Source: Naegleria gruberi
Taxonomy: Eukaryota
Assembly: GCA_000004985.1 (NCBI GenBank)
Contig: GG738895.1
Length of the DNA: 64,000 nt
Strand: one strand, 5' to 3'
The notes under the pieces were generated by a model. It worked only from the letters and a program-made list of their open reading frames with translations, was not told the DNA's origin and searched no databases. Both the position numbers and the translations under genes were made by a program. Below, one piece after another: positions 34,684 to 61,418 of this stretch. Positions within the stretch are counted from its first letter, which is position 1. Each line of letters begins with the position of its first letter.

Positions 34684-35775
34684 ATGGGAAACAATCAACA
34701 ACCCACATCCCAACCACCAGTTTTAAAAGATGGCGCTCTTCCGAGTGTTAGTACTCCATCATCAGCATGTTATGAACGCACATTAATGCAAGAATATTTT
34801 CCTAATAATTGTAAATTAATTCGAGTTTGTGATCATGATGAAGAAAATCGAAGGAAACAAGAGGAGAATTTGAAGAATTATCGGGAGAAATACTTGTCTC
34901 GATGTAATGGAATATTGGAGAAGATGTTACCTGAGGAAATTATTGTTGAAATTTTGTATTACTTGCCAATGAAGAGTTTGATCAAATTACAAATGGTTTC
35001 AAAGAATTTTCGCTTGTATTGGACTGAACTTCCTGGATTGTGGGATAAATTTTCAGATTATCCCAAAATGATGTATATTCCAATGGTATACGAAAGTATG
35101 AGAAGTAATTTTGGATATTATAATGAATTTAGACAAAAATTAATTAATTTACATGAAAAGCCAACACGAAATTTTGATTTTACTGGATATCAATACAAAG
35201 CCATCGTTTTGGGAGATAAAAAGTGTGGGAAAACCATTTTGCATAACAGAGTCTTCAAAGGCGAACCATTTTCTCAAGAATATGTCTATACGATCGGAGT
35301 AGATTTTTCTACCACAATTTCCAAACAAAACATATACATTCAATCTTGGGATACAGGTGGAGATGAAAGATTTAGAACAATTAATATCAATTTCTTTAGG
35401 GGTATGAAAGGCCACTTTTACTGCTTTGATTTGAATAATCACGAGTCATTTGAAGTAATGAAGGACATTTTTCAAGATTGGAAGAATGTATATCTCAAAG
35501 GTGAAGACCTTAGTTCATATTTTACTAAGATTTCATTCGCATTGGTGGGATTGAAATCAGATTTGGAACGCAAAGTATCAAGAGATGAAATTCATGAATT
35601 CTTGGAAAATATTGAACCACTGAAGGATAAGACTTTGCACACCAGTAGAGTCCAATACTTTGAGTTGAGTTCTAAAGAAGATTCAATTTCAGATTTACTT
35701 TTTCCATTTGTCTATAGTTATCATAATGTAATGGAAATACCAAGGCAATATTCAACAAGTATAAGTGAAATGTAA
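34684..35775 (+). CDS. MG-start + F-box + Rab-like small GTPase fusion protein (copy 1)
   Basis: The N-terminus is MGNNQQ. The F-box reads LPEEIIVEILYYLPMKSLIKLQMVSKNFRLYW. The GTPase motifs are G1 GDKKCGKT, G2 YTIGVDF, G3 WDTGGDERF, G4 GLKSDL and G5 ELSSKE. There is no C-terminal Cys. Confidence 0.75.
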   Translation: MGNNQQPTSQPPVLKDGALPSVSTPSSACYERTLMQEYFPNNCKLIRVCDHDEENRRKQEENLKNYREKYLSRCNGILEKMLPEEIIVEILYYLPMKSLIKLQMVSKNFRLYWTELPGLWDKFSDYPKMMYIPMVYESMRSNFGYYNEFRQKLINLHEKPTRNFDFTGYQYKAIVLGDKKCGKTILHNRVFKGEPFSQEYVYTIGVDFSTTISKQNIYIQSWDTGGDERFRTININFFRGMKGHFYCFDLNNHESFEVMKDIFQDWKNVYLKGEDLSSYFTKISFALVGLKSDLERKVSRDEIHEFLENIEPLKDKTLHTSRVQYFELSSKEDSISDLLFPFVYSYHNVMEIPRQYSTSISEM

Positions 35776-57695: not shown

Positions 57696-59141
57696 ATGTT
57701 CTCGAGAACAAGGGTTATTTTCAAAATAATAATAATAATAATAATTAATGAATTGCTAATAGAGAATATTATATTTTCGGATGATGTTTGTTTTGAAATT
57801 ATTTCCATGATTGATGATTCGTGGTTTATTTTGAATAATTGTTCTTTAATTTCAAAACAATGGTTTAATGTGATCAAGGATCGTTCAAAACTTGTTATTC
57901 AATTTAAAAAAAAATTAACAGAAAAAAGAGTTGAATTATTAATGAAAAGTCAATTCATGAACAGTATTGTAAATGTTAAGTTTTCTTTTGGGTTGCTTAA
58001 CTCTTCAGATAAACTTAAATTCATAAGTGAAATGAAACATTTAACATCACTTGATATTGCTGACAATCAAATTGGTGATGAGGGATCTAAATTCATAAGT
58101 GGAATGAAACATTTAACATCACTTAATATAGATCGCAATCAAATTGGTGTAGAAGGAGCCAAACTCATAAGTGGAATGAAATCATTAATATCACTTAGTA
58201 TTGGTGATAATCAAATTGGTGTAGAAGGAGCCAAACTCATAAGTGGAATGAAACATTTAACATCACTTGATATAAATCGCAATCAAATTGGTGTAGAAGG
58301 AGCCAAATCAATAAGTAGAATGAAACAATTAACATCACTTAATATATATTACAATCAAATTGGTGCTGAGGGAGCCAAATCAATAAGTGGAATGAAACAA
58401 TTAACATCACTTGATATTGGTGGAAATCAAATTGGTGTAGAAGAATCCAAATACATAAGTGAAATGAAACAATTAACATCACTTGATATATATAACAATC
58501 AAATTGGTGTAGAAGGAGCCAAATCAATAAGTGGAATGAAACAATTAACATCACTTAATATTGGTTTCAATCGAATTGGTGTAGAAGGATCCAAACTCAT
58601 AAGTGAAATGAAACAATTAACATCACTTAATATTGGTTCCAATGAAATTGGTGTAGAAGGGTCCAAATTCATACCTGAAATGAAACATTTAACATCACTT
58701 AATATATATTACAATGAAATTGGTGATGAAGGATCCAAATACATAAGTGAAATGAAACAATTAACATCACTTGATATATATTACAATGAAATTGGTGTGG
58801 AAGGAGCCAAATACATAAGTGAAATGAAACAATTAACATCACTTGGTATTAGTGATAATCAAATTGGTGTAGAAGGAGCCAAATTCATAAGTGAAATGAA
58901 ATTATTAACATCACTTGATATTGCTGACAATCAAATTGGTGATGAGGGATCTAAATTCATAAGTGAAATGAAATCATTAACATCGCTTAATGTTAATTCC
59001 AATCAAATTGGTGATGAGGGAGCCAAACTTATAAGTGGAATGAAACAATTAACATCACTTAAAATATATTACAATCAAATTGGTGAAACTTTATTAATGT
59101 CTGTTATATCAATAACAGCTGAGACCAAATCTTTAGACTAA
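57696..59141 (+). CDS. F-box-like + 24-residue LRR protein (14 full units plus one partial); 5' end uncertain
   Basis: FSDDVCFEIISMIDDSWFILNNCSLISKQWFNVI is paralogous to the 55100 gene, and is followed by a regular LRR array. The ORF-internal ATG at 57696 would translate an (AAT)7 microsatellite as poly-Ile. An alternative is ATGATGGAG (57665) + GTAAAA donor + intron to 57764. Confidence 0.65.
   Translation: MFSRTRVIFKIIIIIIINELLIENIIFSDDVCFEIISMIDDSWFILNNCSLISKQWFNVIKDRSKLVIQFKKKLTEKRVELLMKSQFMNSIVNVKFSFGLLNSSDKLKFISEMKHLTSLDIADNQIGDEGSKFISGMKHLTSLNIDRNQIGVEGAKLISGMKSLISLSIGDNQIGVEGAKLISGMKHLTSLDINRNQIGVEGAKSISRMKQLTSLNIYYNQIGAEGAKSISGMKQLTSLDIGGNQIGVEESKYISEMKQLTSLDIYNNQIGVEGAKSISGMKQLTSLNIGFNRIGVEGSKLISEMKQLTSLNIGSNEIGVEGSKFIPEMKHLTSLNIYYNEIGDEGSKYISEMKQLTSLDIYYNEIGVEGAKYISEMKQLTSLGISDNQIGVEGAKFISEMKLLTSLDIADNQIGDEGSKFISEMKSLTSLNVNSNQIGDEGAKLISGMKQLTSLKIYYNQIGETLLMSVISITAETKSLD
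58010..59090 (+). repeat. 72-nt coding tandem repeat array (LRR units xLTSLxIxxNQIGxEGAKxISxMK)
   Basis: There are 14 full units plus 1 partial unit. Long stretches are shared verbatim between units, for example atgaaacaattaacatcacttgatat and caaattggtgtagaaggagccaaa. Confidence 0.9.
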
Positions 59142-60320: not shown

Positions 60321-61418
60321 TTATAGCATGGTTTTTAGAGTGGCAACAGCATAGAGGAATGGAAAGAGAAGGTCATCATCAGAGCACTCTTCTTTGGAGC
60401 TTAATTCAAAATATTGAACTTTGGTTGTGTGAATTGTTTTTTGTTGAGGCTCTGGCTCGACCATTTTTAGAAAATTGTAAATTTCAAGTCTTGTTACTTG
60501 ATGATCGAGATCTGATTTCAATCCGAGTAAGAGGAAACATCTATCATTGATATTGTAATCTGAAATATCTTTGACTGTCATTTCGTGATAAATTTCAATC
60601 ATTTCCTCAAATGATTTATGACTATTCAAATCAAAACAATACACAAAAACATTAGCTCTCGAATAAACAGATTTGAATAGCGATAGATATGTTTGATTTC
60701 CACATGTATCCCAAATCTTGAATGCAAATTCCGTCCCACTTCCATAAAGGTAATGCTTGTCAATTACTGGGAAAGTTATTGAGGGTGTATAATTTTCCGA
60801 AAATGGTAATTGATTAAAAGCTCTATCAATCAAAGTGGATTTACCACACCCTGATGACCCAACAAATATGTATTGGGCACATTGAGGCAATTCAACATCC
60901 TCATCTATTACAAATCTCTTCAGCAAGACATTTTTAACATTTTCATAACTTTCCATATCAGAAAACATGTACAACATTGGACTTTTTCTCCTCAAATCCT
61001 TCCACAGAACTTCAAATCTGGTCCAATACATTAAAAATCTCTTTGAAACTCGTTGCATTCTCCCTATACTTTCCATATCCAAAAATTGTAAAATGTGTAA
61101 AATTATTTCATGAGGAAAATTCGTCAACCAACCATCCTTCTCCTCACCCTGATTGAAATACTCATCATTGCCTCCATATCCTCTCCTAATTCCATTAAAA
61201 ATTCCTATCGGAAGCAATTCTACATCCGAAACAATAGTAGAAAGAATAGATTTCCTCTTGAATCCTCTTGGTAATTCCAACACGGGAAAATGTAGGGATT
61301 TTCCTGTAGAATAAAGTAAATTTTCAGATTGTTCACGGGAGGGGATTTTATTTTCATCTCTTGCTTGGTGATTCAGAGATGATGATGAGGGCGTCTCTGT
61401 TGATGTTTGTTGTCCCAT
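60321..61418 (-). CDS. MG-start + F-box + Rab-like small GTPase fusion protein (copy 2)
   Basis: MGQQTS fits the myristoylation consensus. The F-box reads FPHEIILHILQFLDMESIGRMQRVSKRFLMYW. The GTPase motifs are G1 GSSGCGKS, G3 WDTCGNQTY, G4 GLKSDL and G5 ELSSKE. There is no C-terminal Cys. Confidence 0.75.
   Translation of the reverse strand: MGQQTSTETPSSSSLNHQARDENKIPSREQSENLLYSTGKSLHFPVLELPRGFKRKSILSTIVSDVELLPIGIFNGIRRGYGGNDEYFNQGEEKDGWLTNFPHEIILHILQFLDMESIGRMQRVSKRFLMYWTRFEVLWKDLRRKSPMLYMFSDMESYENVKNVLLKRFVIDEDVELPQCAQYIFVGSSGCGKSTLIDRAFNQLPFSENYTPSITFPVIDKHYLYGSGTEFAFKIWDTCGNQTYLSLFKSVYSRANVFVYCFDLNSHKSFEEMIEIYHEMTVKDISDYNINDRCFLLLGLKSDLDHQVTRLEIYNFLKMVEPEPQQKTIHTTKVQYFELSSKEECSDDDLLFPFLYAVATLKTML

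Follow-up and report, generated by a model that had tools for sequence, protein, structure and literature searches.

A 64,000-nt stretch of nuclear DNA from Naegleria gruberi (assembly GCA_000004985.1, contig GG738895.1; ~33% G+C), hereafter the window, carries two genes encoding F-box proteins with a Rab-like GTPase domain. The gene of primary interest, copy 2, is a complete single-exon open reading frame (ORF) at 60321..61418 on the minus strand, whose 365-residue product is 100% identical over its full length to XP_002672819.1, deposited as a 'small GTPase'. Its paralogue, copy 1, is a complete ORF at 34684..35775 on the plus strand, and its 363-residue product matches the deposited protein XP_002672750.1 exactly. 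The two genes lie ~25 kb apart on opposite strands of one 333,733-nt scaffold, with unrelated genes around them; their products share 36% identity across 274 residues (E 1e-44).

The genes and their F-box-Rab architecture are already catalogued: in a re-annotation of more than 350 Ras-superfamily genes of N. gruberi, both proteins are listed as 'Rab' with an F-box as additional domain (Table S8 of Herman et al., 2021; BMC Biol 19:142, PMC8296547). Three divergent, lineage-specific Rab-like clades are described there, extended N-terminally by an F-box and evolving by birth and death (Suppl. Material 4), and these clades are the same family as the two copies. In the portions of that text and its supplements that were searched, neither 'NKxD' nor 'myristoyl' occurs, and the corresponding portion of the small-GTPase supplement holds no discussion of G-motif states; the motif-level states, the covariation of G4 with G5, the N-terminal Met-Gly signal and the presence of the family in Willaertia appear to be additions to the catalogued genes.

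In copy 2, the F-box (residues 98-143; 60990..61127, minus strand) is detected by two Pfam models, PF00646 (residues 98-137, 27.6 bits, cut-off 20.5) and the F-box-like PF12937 (residues 102-143, 29.0 bits, cut-off 24.3), and coincides with helices in an AlphaFold2 (AF2) model. It is followed by a Rab-like G domain (residues 180-358; 60345..60881, minus strand), identified by Pfam Ras (residues 183-345, E 1e-22), AF2 and Foldseek. Copy 1 has the same arrangement, with an F-box at residues 82-115 (34927..35028, plus strand; PF00646, 29.0 bits, cut-off 20.5) and a Ras match at residues 172-332 (E 2e-23). The PF00071 (Ras) scores for the two copies, 80.9 and 83.2 bits, compare with a gathering cut-off of 21.6. 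Pfam finds no FYVE domain in either copy at E <= 1 and no BTB domain in either.

The AF2 model, built on a 25-sequence family alignment, shows residues 1-93 as disordered, the F-box as helical, a helix in the linker and a G domain modelled with confidence; the predicted local distance difference test score (pLDDT) is ~90 over the G domain and ~80 over the F-box helices. Foldseek matches the modelled G domain to Rab9, Rab7, Rab1 and Ras with template modelling (TM) scores of 0.81-0.85, normalised to target length. In a sequence search of the PDB, Rab7/Ypt7 chains score best, with RhoD almost as high. Rab proteins carry the RabF motifs IGVDF, KLQIWDTAGQE, RFRSIT, YYRGA and LVYDIT; judged by eye on the alignment, copy 1 matches these regions partially (TIGVDF, ERFRTI) and copy 2 poorly (SITFPV, NQTYLSL).

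Both G domains deviate from the textbook GTPase motifs at G4 and G3, as the first-pass annotation had proposed. A phmmer alignment to solved Rab7/Ypt7 sets 'wdtcgnq' over 'wdtagqe' and 'lglksd' over 'ignkid', which fixes the motif register. Profile, PDB and fold alignments agree that G4 reads LKSD in both copies, with Leu in place of the Asn of NKxD: Leu300 in copy 2 (60510..60521, minus strand) and Leu290 in copy 1 (35551..35562, plus strand). In the phmmer register, the catalytic Gln of G3 is replaced by Asn241 in copy 2 (WDTCGNQ; 60693..60713, minus strand) and by Asp227 in copy 1 (WDTGGDE; 35347..35367, plus strand). An error of register had been named as the way in which this proposal might fail; a six-frame regular-expression scan of both ORFs finds no canonical NKxD or DxxGQ elsewhere. 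The remaining motifs of copy 2 comprise a P-loop (G1) GSSGCGKS with Ser-Gly at Ras positions 12/13 and Cys at the Val14 position (60837..60860), a switch I YTPSITF with Ser213 at the conserved Thr position (60771..60791), and a G5 LSSKE with Leu339 at the Ras Thr144 position and SSK replacing SAK (60390..60404), all on the minus strand. Copy 1 has the P-loop GDKKCGKT with Lys at both Ras-12 and Ras-13 (35212..35235, plus strand) and an identical G5, LSSKE (35665..35679, plus strand).

Two simpler accounts of these states were rejected. Gln242 of copy 2 (the last residue of WDTCGNQ) might be taken for a catalytic Gln shifted by one position, yet Gln at +1 is found in only 4/28 family members. 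A sequencing or annotation artefact is rejected because both ORFs equal the deposited proteins exactly and because the Leu codon, TTG in both copies, matches the Asn codons AAT/AAC at none of its three positions. The 12 nt that encode LKSD (TTGAAATCAGAT) are identical at 35551-35562 and 60510-60521 despite 36% protein identity; with codon usage biased as it is in this AT-rich genome, chance may account for this.

To place the two copies among their relatives, a profile of both was searched against 1.84 billion cluster representatives, recovering a family whose matches align without a break from the F-box through the G domain. Together with five re-annotated N. gruberi models (Table S8; Herman et al., 2021), the family set holds 29 distinct sequences; tallies below have denominators of 26-28 per position. 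The members come from N. gruberi, N. lovaniensis, Willaertia magna and environmental assemblies, with ~14 genes in the N. gruberi clade that holds both copies, and share 19-42% identity with copy 2. These clades were called Naegleria-specific (Herman et al., 2021), whereas members are found here in W. magna and in environmental assemblies. A word-indexed search with the family alignment (A2) added only Willaertia members, a single-sequence search of a 5.8-billion protein set returned the query alone, and pattern matching across genomes of bacteria and archaea (alignment A1) gave 82 matches and no family relative, a weak negative in view of its low sensitivity. Sequence signatures common to Naegleria and Willaertia are CFDL, G[LM]KxDL, RVQYFE[LIV]SSK and FPFxYA.

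In the family alignment, the deviations of the two copies prove to be family-wide. The first G4 position is Leu in 16 members, Met in five, Thr in three and Phe in two, and is never Asn (0/26), so that [LMF]KxD is the family form. The rest of the motif is kept: Lys in 24/26, and Asp in 22/26 with Glu in the other four. Among other GTPase domains retrieved by the same profile search, which served as a first control, the first G4 position is Asn in 95 and Thr in 25 of 139. A second control, 119 Rab1-like proteins from a word-indexed search with the protein P0051, has Asn in 83 and Thr in 13 of the 105 aligned at this position (14 unaligned). Since the family members are related, their G4 pattern represents one ancestral substitution kept under constraint rather than 26 separate events, and the constraint is indicated by the persistence of a hydrophobic first residue while most of the protein diverged. 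The proposal that LKSD is a selected feature is upheld to this extent.

The catalytic position of G3 behaves differently. Gln is absent from 26/28 members, which have Asp (nine), Asn (four), His, Ser or Glu (three each), Lys (two), Gly (one) or Ile (one) instead; the controls retain Gln in 115/197 and 119/119 cases, respectively. The Gly13 position of Ras is Gly in 3/26 members, the others having Lys (nine), Arg (three), Gln, Asn, Trp and other residues, against 93/119 with Gly among the Rab1-like controls; the Gly12 position, too, is often bulky or charged. By contrast, residues that contact the nucleotide and Mg are near-invariant: the P-loop Lys and Ser/Thr in 26/26 each, the switch I Thr in 25/27, the Asp (Asp57) and Gly (Gly60) of DxxG in 24/27 and 27/28, the G5 Ser in 24/26 and the G5 Lys in 20/26. 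The hydrophobic first G4 residue is a fixed, constrained trait of the clade and the catalytic position is unconstrained; the variable replacement of the G3 Gln fits relaxed constraint on catalysis.

Relatives of other kinds show how such domains are distributed. Other F-box Rab-like clades in Table S8 have TKxD and also lack the Gln (e.g., WDQCGPE with TTKKD). Two environmental sequences, P0026 (2322 residues) and P0044 (2394 residues), are giant proteins of many domains, several of them Rab-like and in tandem, in which G4 reads GMKVD, GLRSD, GMKSD or GMKCD and the G3 residues are non-Gln; leucine-rich repeat (LRR)-like stretches are visible by eye. Two further environmental (JGI) proteins, P0071 and P0125, join an F-box to a fully canonical Rab (WDTFGQERF with GTKLD, and WDTAGQERF with GNKQD and a CIIH tail, respectively); F-box-Rab fusions therefore exist outside the clade, with intact catalytic motifs.

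The Asn of NKxD connects the G4 loop with both the P-loop and the G5 loop: in H-Ras crystal structures, Asn116 hydrogen-bonds Thr144 and the Val14 backbone (Ras numbering: G4 N116-K117-C118-D119; G5 E143-T144-S145-A146-K147). In the family, the G5 partner has changed along with G4. At the Thr144 position, 24/26 members have Leu, Ile or Val; the residue there is Thr in 100/142 retrieved domains with an Asn-type G4, in 0/6 LKxD Rabs from outside the family and in 0/20 family members of the covariation count, which have Leu, Val, Ile or Ala there. The Val14 position is Cys in 14/26. The covariation suggests that the polar Asn-Thr clamp was swapped for a hydrophobic contact between Leu and Leu, Ile or Val.

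What such a swap does to nucleotide affinity can be viewed from two sides. Asn-to-Ile at the same position is used experimentally to obtain nucleotide-free Ypt7 (N125I), and rab7N125I, with the same substitution, is a dominant-negative mutant; the top-scoring chain in the PDB search, 5ldd_C, has 'GIKID' because it is this engineered nucleotide-free Ypt7 N125I. From the behaviour of these mutants, a large loss of affinity is the naive expectation for Leu. However, the engineered proteins, which likewise have a hydrophobic residue in place of the NKxD Asn, keep Thr at the G5 partner, whereas the family has Leu, Ile or Val there; consequently, the outcome may differ. On the other side, LKxD or MKxD also occurs naturally in otherwise ordinary Rabs with GDSGVGKS and WDTAGQE (P0051, P0068, P0047, P0166, P0169-P0171 and P0168), among them a transcript from Physarum polycephalum and three paralogues that share a 1.16-Mb eukaryotic contig. 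P0051, a canonical Rab with GLKSD, is the one closest to the family profile; P0051, P0068 and P0047 have CaaX or CC-type tails, and where G5 is readable these Rabs have Ile, Val or Ala, not Thr, at the Thr144 position. Because LKxD occurs in seemingly working Rabs, the Leu alone is no evidence of a dead domain. The suggestion that a non-canonical G4 marks these GTPases holds in that the trait is family-wide, but LKxD is not diagnostic, as canonical, prenylatable Rabs have it too.

The termini of the two proteins bear on how they may attach to membranes. A C-terminal prenylation motif (CC, CxC or CaaX) is absent from both copies, which end in ...TLKTML and ...TSISEM, and no consistent one is found across the family. 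At the other end, 23/27 full-length members start with MG[QN]. N-myristoylation requires Gly2 and prefers a small or uncharged residue (Ser, Thr or Ala) at position 6; copy 2, with Met-Gly encoded at 61413..61418 (minus strand), begins MGQQTSTE with Ser at position 6, fits this consensus and is a candidate N-myristoylation site. Willaertia members carry N-terminal Cys clusters (MGQLCCG, MGQSISCC) resembling those of dually acylated proteins. Given the MG[QN] start and the lack of a consistent C-terminal Cys motif, the membrane anchor is likely N-terminal acylation, not Rab-type prenylation. One Table S8 model, XP_002677491.1*, opens with MFSKIWKASLTCHDLNIKITKK followed by MGNKQPS; its second Met is probably the true start, as the internal Met-Gly matches the MG[QN] of the family.

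We favour, with moderate confidence, a reading in which these proteins are nucleotide-binding, hydrolysis-impaired Rab-like modules mounted on a membrane-anchored adaptor of a Skp1-cullin-F-box (SCF) ubiquitin ligase and regulated by turnover. How the domains are arranged, which motif states they have, how widely these are conserved in the family and what fold the G domain takes are results of the analysis; nucleotide binding, impaired hydrolysis, myristoylation, SCF assembly and control by turnover are predictions drawn from them. Such a protein would have four parts: a Met-Gly signal for acylation, a disordered spacer, an F-box of canonical type predicted to dock on Skp1/Cul1, and a C-terminal Rab-like G domain in the place usually taken by the substrate-binding module of F-box proteins. 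Guanine nucleotide is probably bound, because the phosphate-, Mg- and guanine-contacting residues are kept at 19-42% identity to copy 2. The features of a self-timing switch driven by guanine nucleotide exchange factors (GEFs) and GTPase-activating proteins (GAPs) would have been lost, i.e., the catalytic Gln, Gly13 (often also Gly12) and the Asn and Thr of G4 and G5. Both intrinsic and Arg-finger-assisted hydrolysis would be impaired, because the Gln is lost and position 13 is bulky.

With exchange fast or normal, the G domain would reside mostly in the GTP form: were the off-rate raised by the G4 change, GTP would load without a GEF owing to its high cellular ratio to GDP. We infer a constitutively GTP-bound state on these grounds. 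The domain would then present a constitutive effector- or substrate-binding surface, or a bait, to the SCF ligase, and how active it is would depend on synthesis, targeting to the membrane and turnover mediated by the F-box, not on hydrolysis. With the G domain in the position of the substrate receptor, an SCF adaptor with a constitutive Rab-like face is the simplest model. It extends the 'GTPase-dependent ubiquitination' proposed for Naegleria F-box GTPases (Herman et al., 2021) and parallels the autoregulation model of RhoBTB and Cul3.

Several observations weigh against this reading. Copy 1 begins MGNNQQ, in which Gly2 fits the myristoylation consensus and Gln at position 6, not Ser, Thr or Ala, does not. 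Two family members, XP_002669601 and the environmental P0028, retain the catalytic Gln. Rabs that combine LKxD with a hydrophobic G5 partner keep, by their sequences, the Gln, a canonical P-loop and prenylation motifs, and the G4 change may accordingly be a neutral alternative packing that leaves affinity unaffected. Finally, the Gln finger that TBC RabGAPs contribute in trans, in addition to their Arg finger, makes cycling conceivable, and loss of the cis-Gln alone still allows for GAP-assisted hydrolysis. The first-pass annotation had predicted very low intrinsic GTPase activity from the lost Gln; hydrolysis is probably impaired, the bulky Ras-13 residue adding to the effect of that loss, but GAP-assisted turnover is still compatible with it.

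This last point leads to the best-surviving alternative, a switch that still cycles, in which a GAP provides the catalytic residues in trans, either the dual Arg and Gln fingers of a TBC protein or the Asn thumb of a RapGAP, and in which LKxD with [LIV]SxK is an alternative G4/G5 packing. Canonical Rabs that pair LKxD with WDTAGQE and CC or CaaX tails speak for it, as does conservation of the switch I Thr and the DxxG Gly, both of which sense the gamma-phosphate. Bulky residues at Ras-13, however, block finger insertion, and most members have Lys, Arg, Trp or the like there. The Gln position, moreover, is unconstrained, with nine different residues, and no cognate GAP is known. We regard a cycling switch as credible but on balance unlikely.

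The first-pass annotation had also offered pseudo-GTPase behaviour, and at its extreme the Asn-to-Leu change would abolish binding and leave a nucleotide-free scaffold, its domain serving as a protein-interaction fold only. The nucleotide-free Ypt7 N125I and the dominant-negative rab7N125I are precedents, and one family member, XP_002680417, lacks a P-loop entirely. An empty domain would be expected to drift, yet the P-loop, Mg and guanine-specificity residues are near-invariant at 19-42% identity, down to a GK[ST] found in every member with the P-loop aligned (26/26); LKxD is present in normal-looking Rabs, and the G5 partner carries a compensating change. An empty domain is thus improbable for the two copies and the family at large. 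XP_002680417.1* itself (Table S8), with LLGDGFLQKRF in place of the P-loop and GFLSD at G4, is by these motifs a candidate truly dead domain or pseudogene in the same clade.

A bolder variant of the favoured SCF-adaptor reading takes the bait function literally: a GTP-shaped Rab mimic, anchored to the membrane by N-acylation and wired to SCF, would ubiquitinate proteins that bind active Rabs, be they endogenous effectors or those by which intracellular bacteria such as Legionella target Rabs. It would explain why the family expanded in this lineage with birth-and-death turnover, why switch II is hypervariable and why both hydrolysis and GEF/GAP dependence were lost. We consider it a long shot.

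Altered nucleotide specificity, for ATP or xanthosine triphosphate rather than GTP, has a precedent in RhoBTB3, which became an ATPase through replacements in G4 and G5, and could be read into the Glu that replaces the G4 Asp in four family members, but both copies keep the guanine-specific contacts (G4 Lys/Asp and G5 Ser-x-Lys), making it very improbable. Just as poor is the prospect that the two copies are functionless, decaying paralogues whose motifs drifted neutrally under relaxed selection in a birth-and-death family: disrupted members and such dynamics are reported for these clades (Herman et al., 2021) and the G3 position is hypervariable, but both ORFs are intact and full length, and Naegleria and Willaertia share the family signatures and keep the residues that bind nucleotide.

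The closest functional parallel to the favoured reading, an SCF adaptor with a hydrolysis-impaired Rab-like module, is found in the animal RhoBTB proteins. In RhoBTB, the G domain is atypical (Gly12 to Asn) and is joined to an adaptor for cullin-3; the protein is proposed to be autoinhibited and is auto-ubiquitinated rather than regulated by GEFs and GAPs; in RhoBTB3, both G4 and G5 are altered. RhoBTB1-3 resemble the Naegleria family in the fusion of an atypical G domain, substituted at the Gly12 position, to a cullin-adaptor module. The arrangement differs, however: in RhoBTB, a BTB/Cul3 adaptor lies C-terminal to a Rho-type domain, whereas in the Naegleria family an F-box/Cul1 adaptor lies N-terminal to a Rab-like one. 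The RhoBTB and heterolobosean F-box Rab-like proteins are analogues of independent origin, not homologues.

By published architecture, the nearest protein comes from a sister lineage within Discoba: TbFRP of the Euglenozoa is composed of FYVE, F-box and Rab-like GTPase modules and lacks a C-terminal prenylation motif; its G-motif states are not reported. As in the family, the F-box directly precedes the Rab-like domain and a membrane module, putative in the family, occupies the N-terminus, but TbFRP is anchored by a FYVE domain that binds phosphatidylinositol 3-phosphate, whereas the Naegleria proteins have a candidate Met-Gly acylation signal and no FYVE. The authors of the FRP study found no Naegleria orthologue.

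GTPase-deficient small GTPases that retain nucleotide binding are familiar from Rnd1-3 and RhoH, in which the equivalents of Gly12/13 and Gln61 are substituted. The Entamoeba 'pseudoRab' EhRabX10 has DTQDME at G3 and TKAD at G4. Substitutions at the Gly12/13 and Gln61 equivalents are common to Rnd, RhoH, EhRabX and the two copies; the former are, by contrast, stand-alone, mostly prenylated proteins with no F-box and no family-wide Leu or Met at the first G4 position. F-box and Rab modules are also combined or coupled in Legionella, where some Rab-domain effectors carry F-box or U-box domains, and in yeast, where the F-box protein Roy1 binds the Rab5-like Ypt52 in a non-SCF capacity. Unlike the Naegleria family, the Legionella proteins are bacterial effectors and Roy1 acts on its Rab in trans.

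The surroundings of the two genes show no functional link with their neighbours, which encode an LRR protein, a dienelactone hydrolase, a sphingolipid desaturase, a DEAD helicase and a beta-helix protein. The LRR gene lies directly upstream of copy 2 (57696-59141, plus strand) and encodes 481 residues, nearly all in leucine-rich repeats of ~24 residues (Pfam LRR_6, E 2e-72); its N-terminus (…FEIISMIDDSWFILNNCSLISKQWFNVIK) looks F-box-like by eye, with no Pfam F-box match at E <= 0.001. Two same-frame ORFs at 63093-63479 and 63513-63923 (plus strand), ~30 nt apart, seem to divide between them one sphingolipid delta4-desaturase (N-terminal domain Lipid_DES of Pfam, E 8e-18); the split suggests a short intron or an interrupted gene.

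The genes had been catalogued and small GTPases deficient in hydrolysis are well known as a class, which makes the advance incremental as long as biochemistry brings no surprise. The family, along with scattered canonical Rabs, uses a hydrophobic G4-G5 pair and would serve as a natural test of the part played by the NKxD Asn: the pair may replace the textbook motif with structural compensation, which bears on the interpretation of the widely used 'nucleotide-free' Rab N-to-I mutants. Annotation and modelling should not treat the family genes as ordinary trafficking Rabs. If the favoured reading is true, heteroloboseans coupled a non-hydrolysing GTPase domain to a cullin ligase independently of animal RhoBTB, by a second route that employs F-box/Cul1 instead of BTB/Cul3.

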